DNA of 64,000 bases from Candidatus Krumholzibacteriia bacterium (GCA_041484665.1 JBGPIA010000012.1:65914-129913); one strand, 5' to 3'. Numbered from the stretch's first letter, positions 15,450 through 52,847 are shown. Numbers and translations: made by a program. The notes: generated by a model not told the origin, from the sequence alone.

Positions 15450-16034
15450 TCAGCGCGCCGGCGTTTCTCCCGATCGCGCTTCTCGCTTCGCCAGCGCTCG
15501 AAGGTAGTCGACGATGTTGCGGATCTTCCGCTCGTTGAGCGTGCGGCCCCACGGTGGCATTGCGGTCGAGAGCCCGACGCTGCCGCCGCCGGCGCGAATG
15601 GCCGCGGCCAGGTCGTCATCGGAGTGGGTGGCCTGGAAAGTGGAGTCGGCCAGCGCGCGCGGACGCGGGTCGAGGTTGTAGGCGTTGAAGCCGTCCCCCT
15701 TGCCCTCCTCACCGTGGCAGTTCATGCAGTAATGGTGAAATAGGGCGCGCCCTTCGCGGGCGTTGTAGCCCAGGTCTGGGATCGGCAACGTCGGCACTGC
15801 GTAACCCTGGGCTGTGGAGTCGGCGGCCGTTGGAGCAGTGGTGACCGGCGAAGCGGTCGTAGCAGCAGACGCGCTTTGCATTGTCGAGTCGGCCGGAGCG
15901 CCCATTCCCGTGTTGATCGTCGCAAGAACCGCGGCCAACACCAGGGCACCGCCGATCAGCCCGCCCCGGATCGCTGCGCTGCGATTCCTTGCGCCGATCG
16001 CGAGCCCCGCCCAGACCATCCGCACCCGCCTCAC
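15450..16034 (-). CDS. Membrane-anchored monoheme cytochrome c
   Basis: CMNCH, GDG...PRPR, distal Met in AMPPW; GTGA overlap with upstream gene. Confidence 0.88.
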   Translation of the reverse strand: MRRVRMVWAGLAIGARNRSAAIRGGLIGGALVLAAVLATINTGMGAPADSTMQSASAATTASPVTTAPTAADSTAQGYAVPTLPIPDLGYNAREGRALFHHYCMNCHGEEGKGDGFNAYNLDPRPRALADSTFQATHSDDDLAAAIRAGGGSVGLSTAMPPWGRTLNERKIRNIVDYLRALAKREARSGETPAR

Positions 16035-18229
16035 GGCTTGCGCCCCTTTCCCCGCTTCGTGCCCGTGGCCGCCTTCCCGGAGTTTCCGGCGCTCCCCGCG
16101 CTTCCCGCATCCCGCCCTAATCCCGAGCCCTCCGGCGGCGGGATCGACGCCACGTAGGCGGTCAGATCGCGGGCATCGGTATCATCCAGGCCGTAGTCGG
16201 GCTCGCGCACGTCGGCGCGCCACCGCTGCGGGCCCTTGAGCCACCAGTAGATCCACCCCGTCTTCAGGCGGGCCGCGGCTCCGTCGAGCAGGGGTCCATA
16301 GTAGCCACCCCTGCCCCCCACCATGTGGCAGGCCTGGCATCCATATCTCTCATAGAAGAGCTTGCGGCCGCGCTCGATCTGCTCGTACGCCGCCCCGGCG
16401 GGAAAGATCTCCTCTGGAATCCGGTCGTCTCGCAGGACGTTCTCGACGAAGTTGGCCATGAAGGCCGCTTGGTCGTCGGGAATCTGCAGCGGGATCATCC
16501 TCTCCTCGAGGATCGGGCGCAGGGTGGTGGGCAGCTTCAGGTAGCTCGCGAGCCAGGCCTCCTTGACCTTGCTTCCCTCGGCGCCCAGGGGCGCCGTCGA
16601 GATGTCACCGCCGGCGCCGTTGATCTGATGGCATGACAGACACCGATACTCGCCAGCCAGCTGCCCGAAATGTCCGGGAGGCGTGTAGTCGTGCTGCGGC
16701 GCCTCCATGACATAGGCAGCGGGCAGGGGATCGCGGCCCAACGACAGCAGCGCCGTCACCAGCGCCTCGACCTGGTGTTCGGTGAGATTGAACTGCGGCA
16801 TCCGCAGGCCTTGGCGGAACGAGCGTGGGTCGGAGACCTTGGCGGCCAGCCAGTCGGGCAGCCGGCGCGGCAGATCCTCGCGCATTCCGAAATCCAGCTG
16901 CGCAGCCGGCTTGTCGGCGATGCCGGTGAGCTCGGGGCCGATCGGCACCGCGATCCCCTCGCCGTTGATGCGGTGGCAGCTGCCGCAGCCGAGTCTCTTG
17001 TAGATCTCCTTGCCTGCCTCGATCGCTTTCTCCGCCGGCCGCACGCCGGGCGAGGGGGTCGCAACCGACGGCTCCGGAATCGACGGATCGGTGAGCTCTT
17101 CCATCATATAGGCGCTGAGATCGGCAAGATCATGGGGGCTGAAGTGGTAGCGCGGCATGCGGATCCCTGGGTAGAACCGCTGGGGGTCGCCCAGGAACGC
17201 CACCAGCCAGCGACGGTTGACCTCGGAGGCGATTCCGGACAGCTCGGGCGCACTGCCGTTGCCTCGGCCCTCGACCGTATGGCAGGAGATGCAACGCGAG
17301 GCCGAAAACAAGACCTTCCCATGGTCAACGTCCCCGCCCTGGCTCGCGGTCCGCGACTGGTCAGCGTCTTCGCCCTGGCTGGCGACTTGCGCATGCTCGG
17401 CGTGCGCGCCGTGATCGACCTCTCTGCTCGCGGTCCCGCCCGCTGTTTCTGCGCCCAGCTCCACGATCGGCGGTCGCGTCCACAGGAACGCCGTGAGCGA
17501 GTCGATCTCGCCGTCGCTCAGCGCGAAGTTGGGCATCCAGGTTGCCGGTCGCAGCGAGCGTGGCGCATGCAGCCACGCCTTGAGCCAGGCCGGGTTGGTC
17601 TTCTGCGCCAAACCGGCCAGATCCGGCGCCTCGGTCTTCCATCCTTCCTGCCCGGCCACCTTGTGACATCCGTAGCAACCCACGCGCGTCATCAGAGCCC
17701 GGCCCTCCGACAGCAGCGAAGCTTCCGGCACCTCATCACCCCGGTGACACCGTCCGCAGGCCGCCTCGGTGTAGCGCAGCGGCAGCAGCGGCGAGCTCCA
17801 GTCGGGGACGCTTCCGTGCGCCTCGGCAACGGTCGTGGCACGCCCCTGCCCCTGGTGGCAGATCACGCAGCCGAAGCGTGGAATGTCGCCGGGCGTGTGC
17901 GGGGTGCGTGGGTGCTGGCGGAATGGCTCGGTTACCTTCGCCATCCGCGGATCCTCGAGCCCCAAATGACACGTGACGCAGCGGTCCACACGGCCGTCGA
18001 AACCCGGAAGCCAGATCTGGTGGATCCCGATGTGCTGGGCCCGCGCCTGCTTCAGCTCCTTGAGCGATCCCGCGCTGCGCGTAAGCAGGCTGCGATACTG
18101 CGTCTGGTAGCGACGATAGCCGCGGAAGTAGTCCTTCACTGGCGAGATCGCCAGCACGATCAGGAAGGCGACGCTCGATACGGCGAACCAGAACCACAAG
18201 CGGTCGGAGGATGGCTCTTTCGGACTCAT
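16031..18229 (-). CDS. Octaheme c-type cytochrome with N-terminal membrane anchor
   Basis: Eight CxxCH motifs (CVTCH, CVICH, CGRCH, CYGCH, CISCH, CGSCH, CLSCH, CQACH); ATG 18229 in TGATG overlap. Confidence 0.92.
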   Translation of the reverse strand: MSPKEPSSDRLWFWFAVSSVAFLIVLAISPVKDYFRGYRRYQTQYRSLLTRSAGSLKELKQARAQHIGIHQIWLPGFDGRVDRCVTCHLGLEDPRMAKVTEPFRQHPRTPHTPGDIPRFGCVICHQGQGRATTVAEAHGSVPDWSSPLLPLRYTEAACGRCHRGDEVPEASLLSEGRALMTRVGCYGCHKVAGQEGWKTEAPDLAGLAQKTNPAWLKAWLHAPRSLRPATWMPNFALSDGEIDSLTAFLWTRPPIVELGAETAGGTASREVDHGAHAEHAQVASQGEDADQSRTASQGGDVDHGKVLFSASRCISCHTVEGRGNGSAPELSGIASEVNRRWLVAFLGDPQRFYPGIRMPRYHFSPHDLADLSAYMMEELTDPSIPEPSVATPSPGVRPAEKAIEAGKEIYKRLGCGSCHRINGEGIAVPIGPELTGIADKPAAQLDFGMREDLPRRLPDWLAAKVSDPRSFRQGLRMPQFNLTEHQVEALVTALLSLGRDPLPAAYVMEAPQHDYTPPGHFGQLAGEYRCLSCHQINGAGGDISTAPLGAEGSKVKEAWLASYLKLPTTLRPILEERMIPLQIPDDQAAFMANFVENVLRDDRIPEEIFPAGAAYEQIERGRKLFYERYGCQACHMVGGRGGYYGPLLDGAAARLKTGWIYWWLKGPQRWRADVREPDYGLDDTDARDLTAYVASIPPPEGSGLGRDAGSAGSAGNSGKAATGTKRGKGRKP

Positions 18230-18927
18230 CAGTGTGCACCAGGATGCCAGGGCCAGACCCATTTCCAACCGGGGCCGCGGAACAGCACCCCGATCAGGGT
18301 GAGGACGACGGTGACCGACACGAACCAGGTCATGATCCAGTTGGAGAGCGGCACCTTCGCAAGGCGCCCGCGCCAGTCCGGTGGGCAGGCCGGTATGGCC
18401 GGTAGAGCCATCGCCAGGGTCACCAGTAGCGTGGGCACCAGCACCGCCCACACTCGGAAACCCACCAGGAGCGCCGCGAGCGCCGCGCTCACGACCAAGA
18501 GCGTCGCGAGCTTCTTGCGCCGCGGCTCCGCGAGGAAGCCGGCGTTGTCCAGGTTCACCCTGAAGTAGGGGATCGCGACCATCGCAATGACAACCAGCCC
18601 CGGGATGAGGACGCCGGCGACGATCGGCGGAAAATAGTGGAGCAACTCCTGCAGGCCCAGGAAGTACCAGGGGGCCTTGGTCGGGTTGGGCGTATTGGAG
18701 GGGTCGGCGATTCCCTCCAGCGGGGCGTCGAAGAACAGCGAGATGAGCGACAGGACGACGACGCACACCTGGATGAGAATGATCTCGCGCAGCAACAGGT
18801 GCGGCGCCGTCATCACCAGTTCTTCTTGATCGACGAGCACCCGCGCCGGGGTATCCCGCCGGATCAGCGCCACCCGCTTGGGCGTAGCTTTGGCATCGCT
18901 GTCGCGCCCGACCTCGAACTCGGTCAC
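18229..18927 (-). CDS. Cytochrome b C-terminal part (subunit IV-like) of Rieske/cytb complex
   Basis: [23 protein letters not shown] (PEWY-equivalent); multiple TM helices; GTG start overlapping upstream stop. Confidence 0.88.
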
Positions 18928-19670
18928 GGCTGGCCTCCTCGGCTGCGACCCGATCCCGCAGAGCCCGCCAGTCCTCCGTCCTTGCGCACTCGCCACAGGT
19001 GCAGCGCCACGCCCAGCACCAGTCCCACGGGCAGCAACGCGCAGTGGAGCACGTAGAACCTCAGCAGCGCGTTCTCACCGACGATGGTTCCACCCAGCAG
19101 CAGGTACCGCATCGGACCTCCCAGCACCGGCACGGCCCGTACCATATTCGTCCCCACCGAGACACCCCAGAGCGCCAACTGATCCCAAGGCAACAGATAG
19201 CCGGTGTAGCTCAGCAGAAGCGTCATCAGCAGCAGGACCACACCCACGACCCAGTTGAACTCGCGCGGGGGGCGGTAAGCCTTGTGGTAGAAGACCCGCA
19301 GCATGTGGAGGAACACCACCAGGACCATCATGTGCGCGGCCCAGCGGTGCAGATTGCGCAGGAACAGCCCGTTGCCCACCACGAACTGCAGCTCCTTCAT
19401 GTCGTGGTAGGCCTGTGGTACCGAGGGGTGGTAGTAGAGCATGAGCATGAGGCCGGTGGCGGTCAGGAGCGCGAAAAGGATGAGGCTGATCGCTCCGAGA
19501 AAGTAGGTGCTGGAGGCCTCGAGGCTGCGCCGGCGCACCTTGGCCGAGTGGAGATGGAGGATCACGCTCTCCATAACCAGCATGACGCGGTTGCGATTGG
19601 TGGGCCGCACGCCGTGCCGCACGATCGAGCGCCAGACCCGATTGTCCGTGGCTGTCTGCAAGAAGCTCAT
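18924..19670 (-). CDS. Cytochrome b N-terminal part (cytochrome b6-like)
   Basis: [38 protein letters not shown]...ALHLW (four heme b His); start may be GTG 19703. Confidence 0.93.
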
Positions 19671-19709
19671 GCTCGCGCCTCGATTGCGGTTGGTGGGCCG
19701 CACGTTGCG

Positions 19710-20189
19710 TCAGAACCGGTAGACCGTCCCGGCCGGCACCTCGATCGATGTGTCCACGATCAGCTCGCCTTTGTCCGAGAGGCTCATCTGCACCCAGCGC
19801 AGCGGCCGCGGCGCTGGCCCTGCCATGACGTCACCCTCCAGCGAGAAGCGGCTGCCGTGGCAGGGGCATGCGATGAGGTTCTTGTCGGGCTGGAAGCGGG
19901 CGATGCAGCCCAGATGGGTGCACACCGACGAGAGAGCCCGGAAGCCGTCGGCCAACCGGATGACGAACACCCGGTGCGCGGCGTCCTCGAGCACCGCGCC
20001 GACACCAATGGCCTCGGGCTGGCCGGCCGAGAATGACGTGGCCGGCTCGAACAGCACCCGGGGACGAAGGAAATCGGCCATCACCGCGCTGGCTCCGCCG
20101 CCGGCGAGCCCGCAGGCGATCAGGCCGGTTGCCTGACAGAAGAGCCGGCGGGTCAGGACCGGCTTTCCCGCGTCGCCGGTCTCAGACAT
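19710..20189 (-). CDS. Rieske [2Fe-2S] protein
   Basis: CTHLGC and CPCHGSRF; Tat-like TRRLF N-terminus; GPAPRPL. Confidence 0.95.
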   Translation of the reverse strand: MSETGDAGKPVLTRRLFCQATGLIACGLAGGGASAVMADFLRPRVLFEPATSFSAGQPEAIGVGAVLEDAAHRVFVIRLADGFRALSSVCTHLGCIARFQPDKNLIACPCHGSRFSLEGDVMAGPAPRPLRWVQMSLSDKGELIVDTSIEVPAGTVYRF

Positions 20190-22182
20190 GGCTCGCCTCC
20201 AATGCGCTCGGCTGCGGTCGGCCGTGGTCCAGTCCGCTCGGCTGCGGTCGGCCTTGTTCCAGTCGGCTCGGCTCCAATGGGCTCGACTCCAATTGGCTCG
20301 GCTCCAATTGGCTCGGTTCCGTGAGGAAGAACTGCTCCATGGTGATGGTGCCGGCGGGGCAGCGCAGTGCGCACAGTCCGCATCGGATGCAGATCGTCTC
20401 GTCCTTGATCAGCGCGGTTCCGCTGGGAACGTCCTGCTCGACGAGCGCGGCGGCAGCTGCGCCACATTCGGCCACCAGGTCGTCACGCAGCGCTCCATCG
20501 GCTGAGAGCGCCGACAGCGGCACGAACTCGATGCATTTCTCAGGACAGACGTCGGCGCAGCCGCCGCACAGGATGCACTCGGTGCCTCGCTGCGGGTCCT
20601 CGTGGAACACCGTGTTCACCCAGCAATGCAGGCAGCGCGACGCCTCGAGCTTGGCCGATGTCTCGGACAGACACTGCTCGATCTCGGCGATGCCGATACG
20701 GCGCTCGATGGGCAGCGCCGGCAGCTTCTGCCGCGGCACCCCCTCGTAATCCAGCGTCCGGCGGTAACCCGGGAGCGGCTGGATCACGATCTCCACCGTC
20801 TCCAGAGCGGCCTGCGCACCGCGCAGGTGGGCGTGGATGGAGGACGCCGCGCGGCGGCCGTCCGCGATGGCGTTGATGGCGATGCGCGGGCCGAACGCCA
20901 CATCCCCGCCGGCGTAGACTCCCGGCGCGGTGGTGGCCAGCGTGTCGGCATCGATGCGGATCGTCCCGCGGGGGGTGGTCTCGACGCCATCCTCGGGCCG
21001 CAGGAACGACAGGTCGCAGGCCTGGCCGATGGCCAGGATGACCGTATCGGCCGCCAGCGCCAGCTCGCTGCCCGGCACGAACGTCGGATTGAAGCGGTGC
21101 TGTGCGTCGAAGACCGCGGAGCAGTCGATAGTCTCCAGCCCCGTCACGCGGCCGTTCTCGCCGAGGATGCGCTGGGGTCCCTTGCCGGCATGGATCACGA
21201 TCCCTTCGTGCTGCGCCTCGAGGATCTCGCTGCGGTCGGCCGGCATCTCATCGAAGCCCTCCAGGCAGACGATGTGGACCTCCTTGGCGCCGAAACGGAT
21301 GGCCGACCGCGCCACATCCAGGGCGGTCACGATGTTGAGACTGGGATTCACCACGTCGTCACGCACCGCAGTGCGCAGCGCCGTGCGCGCCACGTCGAGC
21401 GCCACGTTTCCGCCACCGACCACGAGCACCCGCTTGCCGAGCTCCAGGCGGTAGCCCATGTTCATATTGAGCAGGAAGTCGACGCCCTTCAGCACACCGT
21501 CCAGATCGGTGCCCGGGATCTGAAGATCGCGGCTCTTGTGCGCACCCGTGGCCACGAACACGGCCCGGTATCCCTGGCTGCGCAGGTCGGCCAGCAGGAA
21601 ATCGCGACCCAGCCTCGCTCCCAGCTTCAGCTCCACGCCCAGGCTGAGAATGGCGTTGATCTCCAGCTTGATCAGCTCGCGCGGGAGTCGGTACTCCGGG
21701 ATGCCCAAGCGCAGCATGCCGCCCGCGACCGGCTGGGCCTCGAAGATCGTGACCGGGTAACCGAGCAACGCCAGATCGTGCGCCGCCGCCAGGCCCGCGG
21801 GCCCGGCGCCCACGATCGCCACACGGTCCTGGGGATGGCGCACCGGCCTGTCGCCGTAGATCTCCCGCAGCGCGTCGAGGTCGATCATGCTCTCGACGCC
21901 AAAGCGCTCGGTGATGAAGCGCTTCAACGCCCGGATGGCGATCGGCTGGTCGAGCGCGCCCCGCCGGCAGGCGGGCTCGCATGGCGCGGCGCAGATCCGT
22001 CCGCAAATCGACGCGAGCGGATTCGGCCGGCGGGCCACCGCGTAGGCCTCGCGGAAGCGCCCCTCGGCGATGAGCGCTACGTAGCGTCCGGCTTCGGTGC
22101 CGACCGGGCAGGCCTTGAAGCAAGGGAAATTGCTCTCCAGCCACACCCGGTCCACCAGGGTCGTCTCGGCCACGGTCGCCAA
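20182..22182 (-). CDS. GltD/NfnB-like FAD- and NAD(P)-dependent oxidoreductase with N-terminal Fe-S domain and C-terminal 2x[4Fe-4S] domain
   Basis: CFKACP, CGRICAAPCEPAC, GAGPAG, GIPEYRLP, GGGNVA, GGD, CILCGGCADVCP, CIRCGLCALRCP; no signal peptide. Confidence 0.92.
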   Translation of the reverse strand: MATVAETTLVDRVWLESNFPCFKACPVGTEAGRYVALIAEGRFREAYAVARRPNPLASICGRICAAPCEPACRRGALDQPIAIRALKRFITERFGVESMIDLDALREIYGDRPVRHPQDRVAIVGAGPAGLAAAHDLALLGYPVTIFEAQPVAGGMLRLGIPEYRLPRELIKLEINAILSLGVELKLGARLGRDFLLADLRSQGYRAVFVATGAHKSRDLQIPGTDLDGVLKGVDFLLNMNMGYRLELGKRVLVVGGGNVALDVARTALRTAVRDDVVNPSLNIVTALDVARSAIRFGAKEVHIVCLEGFDEMPADRSEILEAQHEGIVIHAGKGPQRILGENGRVTGLETIDCSAVFDAQHRFNPTFVPGSELALAADTVILAIGQACDLSFLRPEDGVETTPRGTIRIDADTLATTAPGVYAGGDVAFGPRIAINAIADGRRAASSIHAHLRGAQAALETVEIVIQPLPGYRRTLDYEGVPRQKLPALPIERRIGIAEIEQCLSETSAKLEASRCLHCWVNTVFHEDPQRGTECILCGGCADVCPEKCIEFVPLSALSADGALRDDLVAECGAAAAALVEQDVPSGTALIKDETICIRCGLCALRCPAGTITMEQFFLTEPSQLEPSQLESSPLEPSRLEQGRPQPSGLDHGRPQPSALEASHV

Positions 22183-22287
22183 CCTGCTTCCGGTTCCTGC
22201 TTCGTGCGCCTACGACTTGTGCCCGTTTCGCGCGCCTGCTTCGTGGTGCTGAGTCGTGTTCTTGCCTCTCGCGACCGCGTCTGCTTC

Positions 22288-22887
22288 CTACTTCTTGAGC
22301 TCGAGATCGGCGGTGGTCGACCCGGCAACCGTCACAGCTTTGCTCGCCTCCGTCTTGAACTTGGGATGCCACACCTTCACGGTGTACGCGCCGTCGGGCA
22401 GATCCTTGATCACGTACGCACCCGTCTTGTCGGTCACGGCAAACCACGGAGTCGGCAAGGCCAGGACGAAGCCTTCCATCTCCGGATGCACCTTGCACAG
22501 GAGGGTGGCCGCGCAGCGCGCCTTGAACGTGTAGCCACGAGTCTGCCCCTTGGGCCAACTGCCGAGATTGAACGTCTCGCAACACTTGTCCGGCGAGAAG
22601 ACGTTGTGGAGTACGGCGTCGCTGTTGAGGAAGTCCACCGTCGTCCCCACCAACACCGGCAGGACGTGGGGGACGAACACCAGGTTCTTTTGATCGATCT
22701 GGGCGTGGGCCGTCGGCGGCGGGAAGGTTTTCCCAGCGATCGCGTCGACGTAGACGACCGCATCGGCATTCGTCTTGACTCCGGGCACCTTGACGACGCC
22801 CTTCAGCTCGCCCGCCGGCGCCACGGCTGGGACGATCAGCACGACCGAGAGCAATGTGACAGCGCAGAAGAGCTTCACGAGCTTCAT
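22288..22887 (-). CDS. Periplasmic cupredoxin-like protein (type-1 Cu ligands) with carboxypeptidase-regulatory-like domain
   Basis: Signal peptide; DQKNLVFVP, NSDAVLHNVFS, CKVHPEM (His...Cys-x2-His-x2-Met). Confidence 0.82.
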   Translation of the reverse strand: MKLVKLFCAVTLLSVVLIVPAVAPAGELKGVVKVPGVKTNADAVVYVDAIAGKTFPPPTAHAQIDQKNLVFVPHVLPVLVGTTVDFLNSDAVLHNVFSPDKCCETFNLGSWPKGQTRGYTFKARCAATLLCKVHPEMEGFVLALPTPWFAVTDKTGAYVIKDLPDGAYTVKVWHPKFKTEASKAVTVAGSTTADLELKK

Positions 22888-22992
22888 ACGTTCGACCTTT
22901 CTTGCTTGCTCGAGCCGGCGCGCGCGGGTGTTGTCGGGGCCTTCTGCAGGGCCCGCTCCAGCACCCTCTTGCGGGCCTGCTCGAGGCCCTTC

Positions 22993-24384
22993 TCAAAATC
23001 CAATGACCACGCCGCCCGAGACTTCCTCGTACTGGAACTTGCCGCCCGTTGCCTTGAGCCAGTCGGTGGCGATGAAGGACTTGATGTTGGCGCGGACCAG
23101 GCAATCAATCGTCAGCGAGACGCGGTCGACCTTCTCGTCCCCGAACTTGAAGGACTCCCAGCGACCGGCGGGGATCAGCCACGGGTAGGCCACCCAGGCG
23201 ACCTCGGCAAACTGGCTGTTGGTGGAGATGTCGGTGGGCTCGGTGTCATCCAGGAAGGGGCGGTCGTCCTTGCGCGCGATCAATCCGGCATGGGCCAGCA
23301 GGTCGAGGTAGTTGACCGCCACGTCGCCGCCCACAACGTGGAATGGATCCTCGGGGCCGGGATCTCCATTGGGCAGCGCGCCGATGCGCCCGGGGTTGTG
23401 GATCGGCCCGCCAACCTTAGGCAGCACAGCGTCTGGAAGCGGGATCGATCCCTTGCCCGTGTACGCGAACGCCGACACAGCGACCGACTTCTCACTCCAC
23501 GGCTTGGGATTCGCCGGCAGACCTTCCGCTGCGCCACTGCGGGGGACGCCGTCGGACTCCAGACCGCCGACCTTGTAGGAAGCCCGGGCGTAGACGTCCT
23601 TCGACTTGTCGCCGACGCTGCCCGCTCCTTCCACGACGCCGGCGTTGTACGAAAGCCGGTGCGCCACGACGCCATAGGCCTCGATCCCCTGCTGGAATGG
23701 CTCGGCGGACCAGGTGTTGTCACCCACCGGCTCGGTGAGCGCGAAGTACTCCTGGTCCATCAGCGACCGGTGCGTGCTCACCAGCATCAGGCCTGGCTCG
23801 AACGAGCCGACCTTGAACTGCAGCTCGGGAGTATCGAGCGGGCGCACCAGCAGATTGAGGCGCTCCATTTCCGTGGCAATGCTGCCGCCATCGCGGGCAA
23901 AGACCACCGAGCCCCAGAAGGAGAAATGTTCGCCGAGCGTGCCAGCGCCCAGAATCTCGAATTCTCCACCCATTCCGCCGAAGGAGAACGTCTCCCCTGC
24001 GCGGTCGTACGCCATCGTGCTTGTGATGAGCACGGCGACCGGGGGAAGCCCGGAGATCTCTCCCGGCCAGACGGACTTGGGCCAGAGCTTCTTGTAGCCC
24101 TCGGCGCCCAGCGACACTGGTTGATCCTTGGAGATGCTCGCATCCGTACCGGCCGGGAATCGGTAACCGTTCGCGCGGAACGCTTCGCCGAACGGAGTGA
24201 GGCCCGGAAACGCCACGTGGCACGTCTGGCAGCTCGTCTGGTACTTCCGGGCGAACGCCGGAATGGCTCCAGCCTCATTCGGCCAGATCGCCACGCAGGC
24301 CAGGACGACGAGCACCAGCGCGCCCGCCGAGCGGAGCTGACTCCACGCATCTCGCCACATTCTATTGGTTCTGTCGCGCCGCAT
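22993..24384 (-). CDS. Cyc2-like fused monoheme cytochrome-porin (outer membrane)
   Basis: Signal peptide, then IPAFARKYQTSCQTCHVAFPGLTPFGEAFRANGY (Cyc2-type heme motif); amphipathic beta-strands; C-terminal Phe (VVIGF); GGGAGG RBS. Confidence 0.8.
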   Translation of the reverse strand: MRRDRTNRMWRDAWSQLRSAGALVLVVLACVAIWPNEAGAIPAFARKYQTSCQTCHVAFPGLTPFGEAFRANGYRFPAGTDASISKDQPVSLGAEGYKKLWPKSVWPGEISGLPPVAVLITSTMAYDRAGETFSFGGMGGEFEILGAGTLGEHFSFWGSVVFARDGGSIATEMERLNLLVRPLDTPELQFKVGSFEPGLMLVSTHRSLMDQEYFALTEPVGDNTWSAEPFQQGIEAYGVVAHRLSYNAGVVEGAGSVGDKSKDVYARASYKVGGLESDGVPRSGAAEGLPANPKPWSEKSVAVSAFAYTGKGSIPLPDAVLPKVGGPIHNPGRIGALPNGDPGPEDPFHVVGGDVAVNYLDLLAHAGLIARKDDRPFLDDTEPTDISTNSQFAEVAWVAYPWLIPAGRWESFKFGDEKVDRVSLTIDCLVRANIKSFIATDWLKATGGKFQYEEVSGGVVIGF

Positions 24385-24473
24385 GACACCTCCCGATGGT
24401 TCCGAGGAAATGCCGAACGGGCCCAGAGTGCGCGAGCGCGCCCCGCTCTACAATCCACGGAACGGATCATTTT

Positions 24474-24493
24474 CCTGATTCAATTGCATCAGG
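24474..24493. promoter_or_regulatory. 20-bp near-perfect palindrome upstream of the porin-cytochrome operon (candidate LuxR-family operator)
   Basis: CCTGATTCAATTGCATCAGG, 9 of 10 symmetric pairs, AT-rich against a GC-rich background. Confidence 0.6.
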
Positions 24494-24526
24494 GGCTGCG
24501 CAGGCCATCGGGCTGACGTCGCGGGA

Positions 24527-24650
24527 TTCCCGGCGGGAATCGCGGGGGTTCAGGCAGGAAATGCGGAGGCTCAGGCAGGAAATGCAGATGCGCAGGTGGG
24601 AGCTGCGGGGGCTGCGGGGGCTCTGACTGGAAGTGCGAGAGCTCGGACGG
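24527..24650. repeat. Degenerate 21-bp tandem repeat (~5 units)
   Basis: gttcaggcaggaaatgcggag / gctcaggcaggaaatgcagat / gcgcaggtgggagctgcgggg / gctctgactggaagtgcgaga. Confidence 0.65.
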
Positions 24651-24653
24651 CGA

Positions 24654-25304
24654 TCAGAGCAGATGCTGGCGCAAGGCCAGCGAGACGGCCTCCAGCTTGC
24701 TGTGGACGTCGAGTTTGCGCAGGATGTTCTGGATGTGATTGCGCGTGGTGGTCACGCTGATGAAGAGCGAGTCGGCAATCTCGCGGGTGCTGGTGCCGTC
24801 GGCGAGCATGCGCAGGACCTGCACCTCGCGCACCGTGAGCGGCACCGGCGGCCCCGGCGCGGGATCTCCCTGGCCCTGCCGATCCACGACCGGCGCGGGC
24901 GAATCGGCCAAGATCCGGCGGATGAGCTCGGTGACATCCCGCCGGCGATCGACCGGCTGCAGAAAGTGGATCACGGAGTACTGCGACGCTCGCGGACCCG
25001 GAACCACGACGATGGAGAAGCTGGCCGCCATCGTCTCGCCCGATTCCTTGCGAACCTCCAGCTCGAAGTGCCGCACCGTCTCATGACGGCGGACCATGTT
25101 GATGAGAGCGCACTGCTGGTCGCAGTAGCGATTGCCGAACACGTCAACCCCGCACAGGATATCGTGGCATGGTTTGCCTAGGACGCCGGCCGCGGAGTAG
25201 CCCAGCAGCTCTTCGGCGCTCCTGTTCCAGATGACGACGCGCCCCTGCTCGTCGCTGGCGAATGCGGCGGCGCCGGTGCGGGCGATCAGGTCGAGGGGAT
25301 CCAC
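24654..25304 (-). CDS. PAS-domain LuxR-family transcriptional regulator (Cys-rich PAS)
   Basis: WNRSAEELLGYSA PAS motif; C-x4-C-x9-C-x3-C; LTVREVQVL...IADSLFISVTTTRNHIQNILRKL HTH. Confidence 0.92.
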   Translation of the reverse strand: MDPLDLIARTGAAAFASDEQGRVVIWNRSAEELLGYSAAGVLGKPCHDILCGVDVFGNRYCDQQCALINMVRRHETVRHFELEVRKESGETMAASFSIVVVPGPRASQYSVIHFLQPVDRRRDVTELIRRILADSPAPVVDRQGQGDPAPGPPVPLTVREVQVLRMLADGTSTREIADSLFISVTTTRNHIQNILRKLDVHSKLEAVSLALRQHLL

Positions 25305-25530: not shown

Positions 25531-27243
25531 CTACCTGGTGGCGGCCAGAATCGTATCGCCAATCGCCGCGATCCCCCTCCAGACCAGGTGCCCACCGTGC
25601 AGTCTCACGACATGCGCCAGTCCGGGCGGGAGGTCGGGGCAGAGCGTGTCCTTCTCCGAGGCGCCGTAGATGCACAGCAGCTTGCGTCCGCGCAGCTTCT
25701 CCACCTCGGGTAGAACGGGCAGCGCGGTGGGGCGCGGGTGGGTGCCCAGCCACTCGGAGATGTGGAACTCGAAGTCCGCCATGTGCGCGGGGCCAAGCAG
25801 GACGATCGAGCGCACGCGGTCGAGCAGGTCGGGTGGAAGCCGGTTGGCCATGAACGCCAGCACATCCGCCCCCAGCGAATAGCCGATGAGGATGGCGTGG
25901 TCCTTGTTCCAGGCCGTCATGTAGCTGCGCAGGATGCGCTCGAGGTCCTTGGACGCCTCGTCGGGTGTGCGGCGCTTCCAGAAGTAGTGCAGCGAGCTGA
26001 GTCCCACCACGGGGATGCCCTGCCGCACGAAGGCCTTGCTGAGCCCGCGCTCGGTGATGCTCCAGCCTCCGTCGCCGGTGACGATCACTGCCAGCTCGTC
26101 ACTCGCGGCGTGGCCAGCACCAGCGAGTCCCCGCGTGCCTGCTGTGTCCGCCGCGCCTGTCGCGCCTGCGGCGGCCGCCGCGTTCCCCGCGCCCCCGTCT
26201 GCGGTCTCCGGCTCGACCTCCGTCAACGGCAAGTCGCTCAGGTCGTTCGCGCTCGGCGACGGCTGCCCGCCTGCCTGTTGCTCGCCGGACGGCTGCTGGC
26301 CTGAAGGCTGCTCACCCGACCGCTGCTCACCTGACCGCTGCTCAACAGACTGCTCGCCGCTGCTTTGTTGCCCGCCCGACTGCCCGCCCGACCGCTCCCC
26401 GCCCTCGTGCTGGGACGGCGGTTGCCGCACGCCCAGCTGCTCCGCCCCCGGCTCCTGCGCGCCTGACCGGCCGTGGGCCAGCCGATCGAACGCCTGCTTG
26501 AACTGTGGCTCCCAGTTGCGTGGCACGGAGAACCCGTGGCCGACCTTGGGCAACGACACGACCTCGCCGTGGGGAACCTGCGACACATACGCCCCGACGG
26601 CGGCTGGATCGCACACCTGATCGATCGTGCCCTGCAGCGCGATCCAGGGAACCTCGAGCGACTTGGCTGGCAGGAAGCTGACCCCTTTGCCCTGCGGTCC
26701 GGGGCCCCACTCCAAGCCGCTCCCCTTGCACATCGGCTTGGTCAACGGCAGATCCGGGCAGAAGCCCATGCTGATCGCCCCGCCGAAGGTATTCGACGGT
26801 GCCTGCACGAGTGCCGCGTAGACGAGCGTCGCCCCCGACGAGTACCCCACCAGGATCGGCGTGATGTAGTCGGGGAACCCCATCTCCTTCTGCGCGAACT
26901 TGCTGAGCAGCTCGAAGTCCGACGCCGGATACGAGCATGGCTCGTCGCTTGACTCCAACGCATGCAGGTAGTGGGTGATGTTGACGCCGACGACGAGCGC
27001 GTCCAGGCCGGCCAGCGTGCGTGCCATGTCGACCACGCCGAGGTTCCAGCCGCCGTCACCCGAGACGAACAAGACGACGGCGCTGGGCTGGGGGACCTGC
27101 GAGTAGAGCGTCACCGTCCCGAAGCGCCCGAACTCCAGCGTCTTCTCCGTTGCGCGGGCACGCGACGGGCCGCACAGCGCGATCGGCGCAGTCAGCAGCA
27201 ACGCACCCAGCAGCCCCCACCAGCGCCTACGCGTCGGTTCCAC
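25531..27243 (-). CDS. AcvB/VirJ-family aminoacyl-phosphatidylglycerol hydrolase (two alpha/beta-hydrolase domains)
   Basis: SGDGGW and TGDGGW; GYSSGA and GYSLGAD nucleophile motifs; signal peptide; low-complexity linker. Confidence 0.88.
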   Translation of the reverse strand: MEPTRRRWWGLLGALLLTAPIALCGPSRARATEKTLEFGRFGTVTLYSQVPQPSAVVLFVSGDGGWNLGVVDMARTLAGLDALVVGVNITHYLHALESSDEPCSYPASDFELLSKFAQKEMGFPDYITPILVGYSSGATLVYAALVQAPSNTFGGAISMGFCPDLPLTKPMCKGSGLEWGPGPQGKGVSFLPAKSLEVPWIALQGTIDQVCDPAAVGAYVSQVPHGEVVSLPKVGHGFSVPRNWEPQFKQAFDRLAHGRSGAQEPGAEQLGVRQPPSQHEGGERSGGQSGGQQSSGEQSVEQRSGEQRSGEQPSGQQPSGEQQAGGQPSPSANDLSDLPLTEVEPETADGGAGNAAAAAGATGAADTAGTRGLAGAGHAASDELAVIVTGDGGWSITERGLSKAFVRQGIPVVGLSSLHYFWKRRTPDEASKDLERILRSYMTAWNKDHAILIGYSLGADVLAFMANRLPPDLLDRVRSIVLLGPAHMADFEFHISEWLGTHPRPTALPVLPEVEKLRGRKLLCIYGASEKDTLCPDLPPGLAHVVRLHGGHLVWRGIAAIGDTILAATR

Positions 27244-27564: not shown

Positions 27565-30387
27565 ATGGCCTTGGAGAAGACTCTCGCCCACTACACGGTT
27601 TTCGAGCAGATCGGTGCCGGTGGCATGGGCGCTGTGTACCGTGCGCGTGACACGCGCCTGGGACGCGACGTCGCCCTCAAGCTCCTGCCTCCCGAGATGT
27701 TCGCTGACGAGCGAGCCCGCGCGCGCCTGCTGCAGGAGGCCCGCCTCGCTTCGGCGCTGAACCACCCCCACATCTGCACGATCTACGAGGTCGGCGAGGC
27801 GGACGGTCAGACCTACATCGCGATGGAACTGGTACGGGGCCGCCCGTTGAGCGAGCAGATCCCTCCGGAGGGGCTGGCCGCCGAGTCGGTGCTGCGCTAC
27901 GGCGCGCAGGTCGCCGATGCGCTGGCGCACGCGCACGACCACGGCATCGTGCACCGCGATCTCAAGGGCGCCAACGTCGTGATCACGGCGGACGGGCGCG
28001 CCAAGGTGCTCGATTTCGGCCTCGCCAAACGCACGGTCGCCGAGTCCGGTGACGAGCCGCTCGGACCCCAGCGCACCGCGCCACCGCCGTGGCCCAGCTC
28101 GCCGGAGCCGCAGCCTACCTCGCCACAGCCGCGGCCCGTGTTCACAGGATCGCCGCCCAATCCCACCGACAGCGGCCTGGTGGTGGGCACGCCGCAGTAC
28201 TGGGCGCCCGAGACTTTGCGCGGCGAGGGGGCAAGCGAGCGCAGCGATATCTGGGCGTTGGGTGTCCTGCTCCACCGGATGGCGACGGGCGGGATGCCGT
28301 TCCAGGGGCGCACCCCGTACGACCTCAGCGCCGCGATCCTGCACGAGCAGCTGCCTGCGTTGCCCGCGCGCGTTCCGGCCGGGTTGCGGGCTGTCATCCA
28401 ACGCTGCCTGGAGAAGGAGCCCGCGCAGCGTTTCCAGCGCGCGAGCGAGGTCAGAGCGACGCTCGAGATCCTGCAGCACGATCTGCGGGTGCCGGCGCAG
28501 GAGGTGCCTTCGGCGGGGAGGCCGGCGGCGGGGAGGCCCGTTGCCGAGCAGCCAGCCGCGGACCGCCGCTCTCGGATGCGAAGGGGGGTGCCACTTTTCG
28601 CCGCGGCCGTGCTGTTGGTAGTGGTGGCCACGGGCGCGGGCTGGCTCGTTTGGCGGCAGTCTGGGCGGCCGCGGGAGCTCAAGCAACGCCAGCTGACCAC
28701 CGACAGCTCGGACCCGTCCAGCCTCGCGTTCATCTCACCCGATGGCAAGTATCTCGCGGCCGTCGGTCACGCCGGCCTTTCCCTGCGCGCGATCGACTCT
28801 GGCGAGAGCCATCCCCTGACGCTGCCCGAAGGGTTCTCGTTCTCGGGCCTGTTTCCCTTCGCAAGCTGGTTTCCGGACGGGAGCCAGCTGCTGGTCAGCG
28901 GCCACATGGCGGACGAGACGCCCTGCATCTGGGCCATCCCCGTGCTCGGCGGGCGAGCACGCAAGATCCGCGGCGATGGCAGCTTCGCCACGCTTTCCCG
29001 CGATGGCTCGCGCATCGCCTACATGCGCCAGGGGAAGAACGGCGCCGAAATCTGGTGTGCGCGCGTAAGCGGCGAGGACCCGCGGCGTGTCATCGCCAGC
29101 GACTCGACCGGAATGATCCCCGCCTGCCCGGTGTGGTCGCCCAGCGGACAGCGCCTGGCCTATGCCAGGGCCGTGACGGGGCCGCAAGGCCTCGAGATGC
29201 AACTCGAGAGCTGCGACCTCGAGGGGCACCGCCGCCACATCTTCTCGGCCCCGCCCGGGCAGCGGATGCACTACTTCACGGTTCCAGCCTGGTTGCCCGA
29301 TGGTCGCCTCGTCTTCGGCCTCTCCGACCCGCCTCCCAGCCAGGGGGATATGAACCTCTGGTCGATGCGGGTGGATCCGCGCTCCGGCGCTCCTTCTGGC
29401 AAGCCGCGCCGCGTCACGCAGTGGCTTAGACTCTCGCTGGTCTGCCCAACCGGGTTCTCGGCAGACGGAAAGCGGCTCACGGTCGGTATCGTTGCGTATC
29501 AGAGCGACTGCTACATCGGCAGGATCGCGGGCGGCGACTCGCTCTTGCAGGACATCAAGCGATTGACCCGCAGCGATCGGATGGACTGGCAGCCAGCCTG
29601 GACGCCGGACAGCAAGGCGATCCTGTTCGCCTCCAACCGCAACGGCAGCTCGGACATCTTCAGGCAGGCGCTGGACGCGAGTGAGGCCGAGCCGCTGGTG
29701 ACGGGACCGGGGGACCAGAGCTGGCCGTGCATCAGCCCCGATGGGAGGTGGATCCTCTACGAGGACTTGGGAAGCGCCAGTGCCGGTAATCCTGCGCCCA
29801 CGGCGCGCCTGATGCGCTTGCCGGTCGCCGGGGGTCCACCGGAAGCCGTACTCGACATGCAGCCCACCGCAGGGTATTGCTGCGCGGCGCACCCGGCTCC
29901 GGGCGCCACGCGGGCTTCGCTCTGCGTGCTGAGCGAGATGCAGGGCGCAGACATGGTCTTCATGGCCTTCGATCCGCTGCTCGGCCGGGGACGGGAGCTG
30001 ACGCGCGTCCGTGCGGAGGTCGGCTCACCCTGGGATCTCTCGCCGGATGGGGCCGCCCTGGCGATCGTGGTGCAGGACTCGGTGGCACACATCCGGGTCG
30101 TCTCGCTGCGCGATGGCGCGACGCACGACGTGAGGCCGAACCCGCAGTTTGGTATCGAGAGCCTGGCATGGGCGGCCGACAGCGGAAGTTGGTTGGCCAC
30201 CGGCATGGTCGGCCGCGCTGGCGCGGAGGAGTGGCGCTTGGTTCGCGTTGCTCCCGGCGGCAAGGCGACCGCGCTTGTGCCTCCGCAGTTCTGGATGTAC
30301 AGCTCGGCGGCATCACCCGACGGCCGTCGCGTCGCCTACACGAACAATACCGGTGAGAGCAGTGTCTGGCTGCTTGAGGATTTCTGA
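27565..30387 (+). CDS. Ser/Thr protein kinase with TM segment and TolB/PD40-like beta-propeller
   Basis: GAGGMG, VALK, HRDLKGAN, DFG, GTPQYWAPE; TM segment; repeated (W/I)SPDG; GGAGG RBS. Confidence 0.94.
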   Translation: MALEKTLAHYTVFEQIGAGGMGAVYRARDTRLGRDVALKLLPPEMFADERARARLLQEARLASALNHPHICTIYEVGEADGQTYIAMELVRGRPLSEQIPPEGLAAESVLRYGAQVADALAHAHDHGIVHRDLKGANVVITADGRAKVLDFGLAKRTVAESGDEPLGPQRTAPPPWPSSPEPQPTSPQPRPVFTGSPPNPTDSGLVVGTPQYWAPETLRGEGASERSDIWALGVLLHRMATGGMPFQGRTPYDLSAAILHEQLPALPARVPAGLRAVIQRCLEKEPAQRFQRASEVRATLEILQHDLRVPAQEVPSAGRPAAGRPVAEQPAADRRSRMRRGVPLFAAAVLLVVVATGAGWLVWRQSGRPRELKQRQLTTDSSDPSSLAFISPDGKYLAAVGHAGLSLRAIDSGESHPLTLPEGFSFSGLFPFASWFPDGSQLLVSGHMADETPCIWAIPVLGGRARKIRGDGSFATLSRDGSRIAYMRQGKNGAEIWCARVSGEDPRRVIASDSTGMIPACPVWSPSGQRLAYARAVTGPQGLEMQLESCDLEGHRRHIFSAPPGQRMHYFTVPAWLPDGRLVFGLSDPPPSQGDMNLWSMRVDPRSGAPSGKPRRVTQWLRLSLVCPTGFSADGKRLTVGIVAYQSDCYIGRIAGGDSLLQDIKRLTRSDRMDWQPAWTPDSKAILFASNRNGSSDIFRQALDASEAEPLVTGPGDQSWPCISPDGRWILYEDLGSASAGNPAPTARLMRLPVAGGPPEAVLDMQPTAGYCCAAHPAPGATRASLCVLSEMQGADMVFMAFDPLLGRGRELTRVRAEVGSPWDLSPDGAALAIVVQDSVAHIRVVSLRDGATHDVRPNPQFGIESLAWAADSGSWLATGMVGRAGAEEWRLVRVAPGGKATALVPPQFWMYSSAASPDGRRVAYTNNTGESSVWLLEDF

Positions 30388-31384: not shown

Positions 31385-31763
31385 CAATGTCAGCCTTGAG
31401 CCGCCGATGGGCCGGTTGAGGCGTCCGACAGAACCGGACGCACGGTCTTTGCGCGTCCAGATCTAGGGTGGATTTGCAGTTCGAACGCACAACCGTCTTG
31501 GCGACGGATTGGGGGTCTGCCGGTGCTCTGGGGCGCGCTGCCTCCAACCACGCGGCCGCGGGCCTGAAATGACCGGCTCCTGTTGGGACTCAGAGGGGCG
31601 ATGAGCGCGGTGCAGTTGCACCGGATGAAGCAGCGCCTCGTAGAAGCGATGCGCTCGACGGCCGTCCGTGGCGAGTTCCGCATTCCAGACACCCACGCAA
31701 TCACAATCTTGCATTACCCGGCCGAAGGACAAGTCGTGCGCCATGCCAGGCGCAACAATGAAA

Positions 31764-49650: not shown

Positions 49651-49657
49651 GGCAGTG

Positions 49658-50209: not shown

Positions 50210-50229
50210 CGCGATGCTTCCCTACTTCT

Positions 50230-52608: not shown

Positions 52609-52847
52609 GGGTCGGGCTCCACCTCGCGCAGGGCCGCTGCGATCGGCCAACGGAAGACCGGGGTCGGATCGGCGGCACGCCAGGCGCGGCTGGCCACCGA
52701 CCCGCCGGCGGCGGGCGCCAAGGATGGCATGGGGGATACCGCTTAGCAAGAACGCCTCAGGCGCCTCAGGCGGTCCTTGCGTCCGGGCGGGCCGCTCCCC
52801 ATCGTGAGGGCAGGCTCCATTCACCCTCGCTCCCGCGAGGTGCCCGG

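Follow-up and report, generated by a model that had tools for sequence, protein, structure and literature searches.

The closest described relatives of the inner-membrane part of the locus reported here are the Rieske/cytochrome b complexes of Kuenenia stuttgartiensis (Kuste4569-4574 and Kustd1480-1485), which, as described, combine a serine-type Rieske protein, a b6-like cytochrome b, a separate five-helix subunit IV, a multiheme cytochrome c replacing cytochrome f and a cytoplasmic FAD/four-cluster NAD(P) oxidoreductase (PMC12954380). The Kuste4569 Rieske protein was measured at 303 mV and its complex was suggested to generate NAD(P)H through bifurcation; bifurcation to NAD+ in anammox bacteria is itself presented there as a proposal (PMC12954380). 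The outer-membrane part resembles the Cyc2 systems of Acidithiobacillus and of neutrophilic bacteria, in which, in the accounts available, a monoheme cytochrome is fused to a 16-strand OprP-like porin, a characteristic motif precedes the heme and a blue-copper carrier adjoins (10.1101/228056, PMC10654088, PMC8790237, PMC13692758, PMC13741234). In Acidithiobacillus, as reported, cyc2 is accompanied by genes for an aa3 oxidase, and those for bc1 are found at a separate site. Two further clusters join an outer-membrane conduit to a Rieske/cytochrome b complex. The Geobacter cluster extHIJKLMNOPQS contains a porin, multiheme cytochromes, a Rieske protein, a cytochrome b and a subunit IV-like protein, but ExtI is described as a porin, not a cytochrome, and the description lists no cupredoxin or NAD flavoprotein (PMC5877670). 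In Zixibacteria RBG-1, MtrAB is co-encoded with PetAB and the direction of flow was left open; the conduit is a decaheme MtrAB and not a monoheme Cyc2, and the account mentions no NAD oxidoreductase (PMC3903129).

The locus lies on the minus strand of a 64,000-nt stretch of DNA (the window) from Candidatus Krumholzibacteriia bacterium (GCA_041484665.1, JBGPIA010000012.1:65914-129913), and all coordinates are positions in the whole window. An earlier note on this DNA had claimed nine co-directional genes, several joined by overlapping stop and start codons. All nine open reading frames were found at 15450..25304 in the claimed order, from a PAS-LuxR regulator to a monoheme cytochrome c, with four overlapping junctions (flavoprotein/Rieske -8, cytochrome b/subunit IV -4, subunit IV/multiheme -1, multiheme/monoheme -4), and CxxCH motifs number eight in the multiheme protein and one each in the porin-cytochrome and the last cytochrome. 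The remaining spacings are 39 bp (Rieske-cytochrome b), 105 bp (Cyc2-cupredoxin and again cupredoxin-flavoprotein) and 269 bp (LuxR-Cyc2). The likely start codons of cytochrome b, subunit IV and the multiheme protein are at 19670, 18927 and 18229, the last giving 732 and not 911 residues. Since the 269-bp gap contains a conserved palindrome and promoter-like spacing, the conserved unit is regarded as eight genes, presumably co-transcribed, with an upstream regulator. Named records from four lineages show the identical gene order, their flavoproteins being 55-88% identical, and the arrangement is far beyond chance. The combination of Cyc2, a cupredoxin and an NAD-linked Rieske/cytochrome b complex was not found in the literature searched.

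Cyc2 proteins are recognised by the motif AxPxFAR[Q/K][T/Y] just before a single CxxCH, with PxL four residues after it (10.1101/228056, in the part consulted); a length of at least 365 aa and a 16-strand OprO/OprP-like barrel were used as further criteria. The 463-aa porin-cytochrome (22993..24384) contains the motif at residues 40-48, CxxCH at 52-56 and PxL at 60-62, and its AlphaFold2 model (mean pLDDT 85.9) predicts 16 barrel strands with an N-terminal heme domain, the best fold match being OprP 2o4v (Z 25.1, rmsd 3.2, 304 aligned). The Cyc2-like label and the predicted heme-plugged β-barrel of the earlier note were thus both upheld, the latter as a model, and the protein matched none of the Pfam and NCBIfam models. 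Inspection of the N-terminus showed hydrophobic residues 17-35 followed by AxA ahead of the motif, a possible signal peptide. The heme motif is invariant in the alignment. His205, which lies in the long loop that follows strand 5, occurs in 98% and 88% of the sequences in two alignments and is a candidate second heme ligand; the alignments contain no conserved Met beyond the start Met. A second Cyc2-like gene of the host is flanked by genes for a CusA-type pump and a copper P-type ATPase, and other Cyc2-type genes are paired with ExtKL-like pentahemes or diheme peroxidases.

The adjoining gene (22288..22887) encodes a secreted 199-aa type-1 copper cupredoxin with a CarboxypepD_reg-like domain, assigned from its ligands and a Pfam CarboxypepD_reg match. 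Ligands C131, H134 and M137 are invariant in 67/67 aligned sequences and H94 is present in at least 90%; the His...Cys-His-Met pattern of type-1 copper proteins was found in 66/72 homologues. Rusticyanin is a single-domain protein with a long Cys-x4-His-x4-Met ligand loop. The loop here is Cys-x2-His-x2-Met and an additional domain is present, so rusticyanin was rejected; the protein gave weak matches to amicyanin, plastocyanin and blue-copper domains, and 21 PDB matches up to E 1 included amicyanin and plastocyanin and no rusticyanin. The likeness to rusticyanin drawn in the earlier note therefore gave way to an assignment to the amicyanin/plastocyanin type of cupredoxin, here linked to a CarboxypepD_reg-like domain. 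Four paralogues occur elsewhere in the host genome, one of which (G000:C14) adjoins a histidine kinase and a heme-less possible barrel protein.

The cytoplasmic FAD/4x[4Fe-4S] oxidoreductase (20182..22182) was assigned from Pfam/NCBIfam and PDB matches and is GltD/NfnB/DsrL-like, with sixteen cluster-type cysteines. It shares with DsrL and NfnB, as these are described, the FAD and NAD(P) Rossmann domains, four [4Fe-4S] clusters and the C-terminal ferredoxin domain (PMC7596348). It differs in that its first cluster motif is permuted, lying after the FAD domain, in the lack of a YRR motif, and in being tied to cytochrome b genes, while DsrL and NfnB are tied in that source to DsrAB or NfnA (PMC7596348). 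The YRR motif is given there as the mark of NADP-specific NfnB and DsrL-2 (PMC7596348). The flavoprotein of the window has CLE at this site and its homologues have xLE, xIE or xVE; the acidic residue was found in 35/35 among the matches listed of 37 (40 examined) and in 36/36 further homologues. The enzyme is probably NAD(H)-specific, judging by this site, and NADP, named earlier as a cofactor, was not borne out because the YRR motif is lacking.

The Rieske [2Fe-2S] protein (19710..20189) has a twin-arginine motif, and its best solved match is 9rk4, Kuste4569 of Kuenenia (E 1e-30). The potential-raising second-sphere serine of CPCHGS was present in 54/54 loci, which suggests a high-potential Rieske center. 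The cytochrome b6-like subunit (18924..19670; Pfam Cytochrome_B) contains four heme histidines, and the subunit IV-like protein (18229..18927), identified by Pfam Cytochrom_B_C, hydropathy and alignment, has five predicted membrane helices and a KAPWY sequence that aligns as the equivalent of the PEWY motif of the quinol-oxidation site. The split b6-like cytochrome b with a five-helix subunit IV, which marks the anammox type in the available description (PMC12954380), is thus present, together with a co-encoded FAD/four-cluster NAD(P) oxidoreductase and a cytochrome c of the hexa- or octaheme kind. The heme cN cysteine was found in 0/51 Cyc2-anchored and 1/52 multiheme-anchored aligned cytochrome b sequences, the sole exception (L188) being a locus without Cyc2. 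An extra histidine, His39, is invariant (51/51 and 55/55) and R229-K230 is conserved; this N-terminal His and C-terminal RK may match the dimer-interface heme site predicted for Kuenenia (PMC12954380, as described). Compared by His-to-Arg spacing, the protein of the window has 190, its paralogues 202 and 209, and Kuenenia 204. Seventeen loci without the flavoprotein also lack the cysteine and keep His39, so neither trait is specific to the flavoprotein. The anammox-type likeness claimed in the earlier note accordingly stands for the layout, the serine and the Rieske match, and fails for heme cN and for the cofactor, which looks like NAD(H). Unlike the Kuenenia complexes, the cassette lacks an HAO-like partner and includes Cyc2, a cupredoxin and a monoheme cytochrome, and its hosts are not anammox bacteria. 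ExtP, ExtQ and ExtS were among the top NCBIfam matches, all below cut-off (253.8 against 290, 57.5 against 150 and 83.4 against 100), and membership of the Geobacter Ext cluster was rejected on these scores.

The membrane-anchored octaheme cytochrome c (16031..18229, 732 aa) consists of three closely spaced hemes followed by five class I-like domains; M358 and M477 are invariant and M232 and M578 occur in at least 90% of 46 sequences. Its model (pLDDT 80.3) gave only weak, single-domain cytochrome c matches in Foldseek. The monoheme class I cytochrome c (15450..16034; Pfam Cytochrome_CBB3/Cytochrom_C) has an N-terminal hydrophobic segment and is present in 31/31 full cassettes.

The PAS-LuxR regulator (24654..25304; Pfam GerE and PAS, GerE-type HTH) was counted earlier as a core gene of the operon, but it occurs in only 10/80 Cyc2-anchored loci and is better described as an accessory upstream regulator with a putative operator of its own, and as a probable activator of the eight genes. 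The palindrome TGATGCA-N2-TGCATCA, conserved in the alignment of upstream regions, lies at 24476..24491 with one mismatch and is a candidate binding site of the regulator: with up to two mismatches it was found in 8/10 LuxR-bearing loci, in L007, which ends with its contig, and in 0/69 other loci, and the host genome has only two sites with up to one mismatch. A putative sigma70-type promoter (24425..24453), proposed from its conserved position in the same alignment, would have its -35 element at 24448-24453, a 17-bp spacer and a weak -10 at 24425-24430; a consensus promoter scan made no call there. This single, putative shared promoter region precedes cyc2.

The claim that other genomes, too, keep the porin-cytochrome and cupredoxin together with the bc genes was checked from both anchors and held. 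Among 80 Cyc2-anchored loci, 31 contain the full eight-gene cassette, 12 are colinear to the contig end and 17 lack the flavoprotein part only; 20/25 multiheme-anchored loci with enough upstream DNA begin with a Cyc2-motif gene. Nine of these first-slot genes belong to a distant subfamily and 11 to the other, with 18% profile-level identity between the two. In L189 and L192 the slot is filled by a heme-less barrel-like protein (a weak assignment) and a separate monoheme cytochrome. Because either Cyc2 subfamily or a split barrel and cytochrome fills the first slot, its function appears to be kept while the gene changes. The converse replacement was found in L002, whose Cyc2 is the closest to that of the window (70%): Cyc2, cupredoxin, octaheme and monoheme are kept and the quinone module is replaced by a Qrc/ACIII-like one. 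In the host genome itself, a paralogous flavoprotein-Rieske-cytochrome b-hexaheme chassis (G000:C7) leads into a type II DMSO-reductase enzyme, so that Cyc2 occupies the position that a terminal enzyme holds there.

A functional link between Cyc2 and the bc module, in either direction, is likely. As to the direction, the reading we favour, at somewhat below even probability, is outward: quinol would be bifurcated, with NAD+ receiving one electron and a soluble oxidant outside the cell receiving the other by way of Cyc2. The mobile eight-gene operon would then build a trans-envelope electron path in which menaquinol is oxidised at the anammox-type Rieske/cytochrome b complex. The high-potential electron would pass from the Rieske protein to the octaheme, then by the monoheme cytochrome c or the type-1 cupredoxin, through presumed contacts, to the Cyc2 heme in the barrel, and on to a small soluble oxidant entering the pore, such as an Fe(III) chelate or an organic shuttle in its oxidised form; the other, low-potential electron would run from the b hemes through four Fe-S clusters and FAD to NAD+. 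This is supported by the two-way synteny, the slot and module swaps, the G000:C7 chassis, the 303 mV Rieske protein, the menaquinone-pathway genes of the host and the scarcity of autotrophy markers, and Cyc2 has been proposed as a terminal Fe(III) reductase for A. ferrooxidans (PMC8790237, as far as consulted). Counting against it are seven long-flanked loci with Cyc2 and cupredoxin but no bc genes, the heme-copper oxidase-family gene in 30/30 carriers, the 17 flavoprotein-less loci that share the cytochrome b traits, and the Fe(II) oxidation by every Cyc2 assayed in the cited studies, as they report it. Qrc is a menaquinone reductase, which also weighs against an outward reading of L002. A narrower proposal is doubtful: that of a self-contained, horizontally moved respiratory cassette whose Rieske/cytochrome b dimer, lacking heme cN, would bifurcate menaquinol, form NADH via a dimer-interface heme and the four-cluster flavoprotein, and send the other electron out of the cell by Cyc2.

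The main rival to outward flow is mixotrophic uptake, in which Cyc2 would take electrons from Fe(II) or reduced organic shuttles and hand them on, through cupredoxin and cytochrome c, to O2 or NO reductases whose genes lie outside the cassette; the bc complex would feed the same high-potential pool from quinol and recover NADH. We consider it possible though unlikely. Apart from the assayed proteins and the Qrc-like module of L002, it draws on the 30/30 oxidase carriers, the host having two heme-copper oxidase-family genes and cytochrome bd, and on potential: reported Cyc2 values range from -130 to +560 mV in the sources consulted, and the conserved His205 suggests a His/His heme, whose potential might be lower than those of the copper and class I hemes, which would make flow from Cyc2 to copper downhill. 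Yet the oxidase background in the host's phylum is already 85/121, the genes that recur around the 80 loci include no terminal oxidase subunit, family f5, which has no heme-copper oxidase (0/25), often has distant Cyc2-type genes (37/43), and Fe(II) and quinol would be competing electron sources for the same carriers. It is improbable that Cyc2 and cupredoxin form a separate surface module for metal handling, redox sensing or small-substrate uptake, co-regulated with the bc genes but unwired to them. The adjacency of cupredoxin to Cyc2 in 71/80 loci, more often than the bc genes, would suit this, as would the surroundings of the G000:C14 paralogue and of the other Cyc2-like genes, but the link outlasts replacement of both the Cyc2 subfamily and the quinone module, copper ligands and heme motif are invariant, and one putative shared promoter region lies ahead of cyc2. 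The Acidithiobacillus-like pathway of the earlier note, from Fe(II) by Cyc2, copper protein and reverse bc flow to NAD(P)H and carbon fixation, is very improbable, even if the genes in their order reach from the outer membrane to NAD(H) and recall the rus and pet operons. RuBisCO was found in 0/30 carrier genomes, which makes a lithoautotrophic flow unlikely, acetyl-CoA synthase in 2/30 and weak partial citrate-lyase matches in 2/30; the host genome (93.65% complete) gave no RuBisCO, CODH/prismane or citrate-lyase match, the citrate-lyase control giving no signal. The carriers are apparently non-autotrophic, the heme cN cysteine for a reverse Q-cycle is absent and NAD(H) rather than NADP(H) seems to be the cofactor. 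The cassette further departs from Acidithiobacillus in having no oxidase, a non-rusticyanin copper protein, and bc genes with an NAD enzyme in the operon. The overall reading of the earlier note is thus kept for the cluster, the Cyc2 barrel and the synteny, and lost for rusticyanin, the LuxR gene as core, NADP and the Acidithiobacillus-like pathway.

Cyc2 is the most widely used metagenomic marker of Fe(II) oxidation, and uncertainty about what it does in clades beyond the tested ones is acknowledged. In the present cassette, a widespread Cyc2 clade shares a fixed operon with a complex on the quinol and NADH side; the carriers have no RuBisCO and the cassette no oxidase. This provides a rule, based on neighbouring genes, by which many Cyc2 assignments can be reinterpreted, and a direct way of testing whether Cyc2 acts as a reductase. 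The cassette also offers, in eight genes and outside the anammox bacteria, a version of the quinol-bifurcating NAD+ reductase that was proposed for them; heme cN is named as the main leak risk by the authors of the anammox work (PMC12954380, as described), and its absence makes the bifurcation proposal easier to test. If the narrower proposal of a horizontally moved, bifurcating cassette is true, heterotrophs from four or more lineages would use Cyc2 as a reductase, and the reduction of NAD+ driven by quinol would not be confined to anammox bacteria.

All nine open reading frames listed in the earlier note were recovered on the minus strand and in the same order: an upstream PAS-LuxR gene, then the Cyc2 porin-cytochrome, cupredoxin, flavoprotein, Rieske protein, cytochrome b, subunit IV, multiheme (octaheme) and monoheme cytochromes. 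The overlapping stop/start junctions were also recovered, numbering four (-8, -4, -1 and -4) once the starts had been corrected to 19670 (cytochrome b), 18927 (subunit IV) and 18229 (multiheme); the other gaps measured 39, 105, 105 and 269 bp. Family scans recognised PAS-LuxR, a CarboxypepD_reg-containing protein, an FAD/Fe-S oxidoreductase, Rieske, the N- and C-terminal parts of cytochrome b and two c-type cytochromes. A 911-aa octaheme reading frame was discarded, its N-terminal 179 residues overlapping subunit IV and being missing in homologues. The flavoprotein is 663-666 aa long here versus about 624 aa in most homologues, and its C-terminus is a low-complexity short-repeat tail (window 20182-20330, minus strand) overlapping the start of the Rieske gene. 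The GC content of the cassette (0.65-0.69) is similar to that of the remainder of the window. Elsewhere in the window are a group II intron reverse transcriptase/maturase with RVT_1 and GIIM domains (6229-8037, minus strand), a three-subunit molybdo-enzyme of the xanthine dehydrogenase/aldehyde oxidase type (48658-52824, minus strand) and a GrdB/PrdB-like selenoprotein of 297 aa (30494-31387, minus strand), formed by two reading frames joined over an in-frame TGA, with U168 in UxxC; the host genome also encodes tRNA-Sec.

Synteny was analysed from both ends of the cassette. On the Cyc2 side, the best 80 of 493 confirmed relatives in representative genomes were kept, so that the counts are biased towards close kin. 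The joint conservation of porin-cytochrome and cupredoxin with the bc genes, implied by the earlier note, was borne out, all eight genes occurring in order in 31 of these 80 loci (21 labelled Bacteroidota/Ignavibacteria, of which two share a genome, with 5 Eisenbacteria, 4 Acidobacteriota and 1 Calditrichaceae). A further 12 loci were colinear as far as the contig end, and 17, mostly from Myxococcota, contained Rieske, cytochrome b and multiheme genes without the flavoprotein; the remainder comprised one locus with another quinone module (L002), seven with Cyc2 and cupredoxin only and 12 whose sequence was too short for a verdict. The cupredoxin adjoined Cyc2 in 71/80. The upstream neighbours of the cassette, a two-domain VirJ-family hydrolase with a Q/S/G-rich linker (25531-27243, minus strand) and a Ser/Thr kinase with a PD40 propeller (27565-30387, plus strand), were absent from the recurring neighbours in the 80 loci.

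On the multiheme side, metagenomes searched with the octaheme sequence by itself gave no relatives; the best 80 of 561 confirmed relatives were kept from an alignment-based scan, and the 25 loci with at least 6.3 kb upstream were counted, the other 55 being excluded. A Cyc2-motif gene started 20 of the 25, with the flavoprotein in 19 of those 20, and nine of the starting genes belonged to a distant Cyc2 subfamily (18% identity by profile comparison). Such a starting gene was absent from five loci. L184 and L191 also lacked the flavoprotein; L188 carried the heme cN cysteine and a flavoprotein labelled Nitrospinota; L189 (1022-8187) and L192 (3598-10631) were hexaheme variants of the flavoprotein-Rieske-cytochrome b-multiheme chassis, with a heme-less, weakly porin-like protein and a separate monoheme cytochrome. 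Another hexaheme chassis variant (L186:1411-4382) has a Cyc2-motif gene downstream.

The 463-aa porin-cytochrome bears the motif described by Keffer et al. (10.1101/228056) as unique to Cyc2, together with a single CxxCH and a PxL downstream. Pfam and NCBIfam searches gave no match, a PDB sequence search gave nothing up to E 1, and the ESM Atlas returned unnamed clusters plus one with Porin_O_P on 12% of its members. The proposed beta-barrel was reproduced by an AlphaFold2 model (111 homologues, mean pLDDT 85.9), in which 16 strands follow a small helical heme domain. The closest structures were 16-strand porins, headed by OprP (Z 25.1, rmsd 3.2, 304 aligned), the template reported for Cyc2, and from the model we infer that the heme would sit within the barrel. 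His205 lies in the long loop that follows strand 5 and is kept in two alignments (98% and 88% of the sequences), neither of which contains a conserved methionine; a His/His heme is therefore plausible. Prediction of a complex of Cyc2 (40-463), cupredoxin (25-199) and heme scored 0.17 (mark 0.32) and carries no weight in the reading below.

The window's Cyc2 subfamily gave strong matches in only 2 of 208 genomes of the host's phylum, some Cyc2-type match being found in 117 of the 208, and this patchy distribution fits horizontal movement. The host has one more Cyc2-motif gene, highly divergent and flanked by a CusA/CzcA efflux system on one side and a copper P-type ATPase on the other (L113:10185-11387). 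At L087, L099 and about 15 more of the loci L083-L110, a distant Cyc2-type gene lies right behind an ExtKL-like pentaheme cytochrome or a MauG/peroxidase-like diheme protein; these loci are spread over the host's phylum, including a family without heme-copper oxidase.

The cupredoxin retains the copper ligands His94, Cys131, His134 and Met137 and is weakly similar to amicyanin and plastocyanin. Its likeness to rusticyanin, drawn in the earlier note, was not recovered: none of 21 PDB matches up to E 1 was a rusticyanin. Four host paralogues share its ligands, one lying within another Rieske/cytochrome b cluster and one adjoining a histidine kinase. The protein is a general carrier type rather than a marker of iron oxidation.

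Among solved structures, the Rieske protein was matched best by 9rk4, Kuste4569 of Kuenenia (E 1e-30), which has been measured at 303 mV (PMC12954380); the potential-raising serine was present in all 54 homologues. Five helices are predicted for subunit IV, the number reported for the anammox complexes (PMC12954380), and in the alignment its KAPWY quinol-site motif is conserved. The flavoprotein contains sixteen cluster-type cysteines, equivalent to four [4Fe-4S] clusters, and lacks a hydrophobic signal. Of the NAD(P) cofactor previously proposed for it, NAD(H) stands as likely and NADP does not, since an acidic residue replaces the YRR site of the NADP-specific NfnB and DsrL-2 (PMC7596348). 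A role as in NfnAB or glutamate synthase was dropped, the partner subunit being absent nearby. An extra His39 in cytochrome b is invariant, occurs also in variants without the flavoprotein, and may be the counterpart of the Kuenenia histidine binding a predicted dimer-interface heme. The anammox feature that fails is the cysteine attaching heme cN, lacking in 51/51 Cyc2-anchored and 51/52 multiheme-anchored sequences. Therefore the inner module is predicted to work like the anammox complexes, yet is not classed as a member. Foldseek found no match to the octaheme model at E 0.001.

The PAS-LuxR gene, taken in the earlier note as part of the operon, is separated from cyc2 by the 269-bp gap and is instead an exchangeable upstream regulator. 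A palindrome upstream of cyc2, TGATGCA-N2-TGCATCA (window 24476-24491), tracks it, occurring in 8/10 PAS-LuxR loci, also in L007, which is cut off by a contig end, and in 0/69 others; a sequence cluster of sigma54 regulators and histidine kinases (two members verified) accompanies 46/80 loci. After the palindrome come promoter-like hexamers set 17 bp apart; a sigma70/terminator consensus scan called no promoter, these hexamers included, and no minus-strand terminator.

The nearest relative of the window's Cyc2 was that of L002 (70%), in a quick tree with SH-aLRT support only, from which rows with fewer than 300 aligned residues were omitted and in which no known Cyc2 was included. In L002 (11944-20880) the place of flavoprotein, Rieske and cytochrome b is taken by a pentaheme cytochrome, a subunit of the molybdopterin family, an Fe-S subunit and an NrfD protein, whose best matches were QrcA, QrcB, QrcC and DsrP, each under cut-off. 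This Qrc/ACIII-like module lies behind Cyc2 and cupredoxin and is accompanied by tetraheme, octaheme and monoheme cytochromes. In a host paralogue (L111, G000:C7:133500-148500), flavoprotein, Rieske, fused cytochrome b and hexaheme lead into a type II DMSO-reductase enzyme of four subunits, of which alpha and beta scored above cut-off. The swap and the paralogue together indicate that the surface pair of Cyc2 and cupredoxin would fit various quinone modules, and the quinone module various terminal parts. The run in L111 also includes a NapH-like protein. A third Rieske/cytochrome b cluster of the host (L112, G000:C4:126000-138500) does have the heme cN cysteine and includes a cupredoxin and an octaheme of 953 aa, but neither a flavoprotein nor Cyc2.

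Oxidases encoded in the host genome (completeness 93.65%) include two of the heme-copper family and cytochrome bd; the genome also carries genes for alternative complex III, subunits of the complex I family, a pair of NiFe hydrogenases, the menaquinone pathway and numerous multiheme cytochromes. RuBisCO, CODH/prismane and citrate lyase gave no match in it, the citrate-lyase control giving no signal. Among 30 incomplete genomes carrying the full cassette, RuBisCO occurred in none, acetyl-CoA synthase in two and weak partial citrate-lyase matches in two, and from these gene contents the carriers do not look autotrophic. A heme-copper oxidase-family gene was found in 30/30 carriers versus 85/121 background genomes of the host's phylum. 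Further host loci encode a predicted 42-heme cytochrome alongside several proteins with 6-12 hemes each, an NrfD module and one more Rieske/cytochrome b pair (a large multiheme region, G000:C2:704000-738000), and 19-, 23- and 27-heme proteins (contigs C10 and C11). At L115 (G000:C6:14000-27000), an 1125-aa fusion of HdrA with a GltD-like domain is encoded together with HdrB and a NiFe hydrogenase of the Vhu type, a set that may act as a flavin-bifurcating module.

The direction of electron flow was left open in the earlier note. Outward flow with bifurcation is favoured, at somewhat short of even confidence, because the carriers are apparently non-autotrophic and no oxidase recurs in the cassette, because the paralogous chassis ends in a terminal enzyme, and because the closest complex, that of anammox bacteria, has been proposed to split the electrons of quinol between NAD(P)+ and an acceptor of high potential (PMC12954380). 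A monoheme barrel would contact just small soluble partners (10.1101/228056). Fe(II) oxidation by every assayed Cyc2 in the surveyed literature (potentials -130 to +560 mV) speaks against outward flow, as does a plausible His/His heme, which could render outward transfer uphill. Inward flow to oxidases is the main rival, though judged rather unlikely. Reversible use of Cyc2, proposed for A. ferrooxidans (PMC8790237), is compatible with both outward bifurcation and inward flow to oxidases. It is improbable that Cyc2 and cupredoxin form a co-regulated surface module not wired to the bc complex, and very improbable, in carriers of such gene content, that the cassette serves lithoautotrophic reverse flow.

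Cyc2 has been reported in genomes of Ignavibacteriaceae, Bacteroidetes and Krumholzibacteria, where the cassette context is not known to have been described. Clusters of a porin with Rieske/cytochrome b are known from Geobacter (PMC5877670) and RBG-1 (PMC3903129), and Caldithrix has a Rieske/cytochrome b pair inside a Nap cluster. A full-text literature search, with subscription journals and bioRxiv supplements outside its scope, gave no title, abstract opening or text passage in which Cyc2 is described alongside an NAD-linked Rieske/cytochrome b complex. The cassette is real and conserved, and joins two known kinds, each module being already known; as read from the sequence, its parts would make an unbroken redox chain from the outer membrane to NAD(H).
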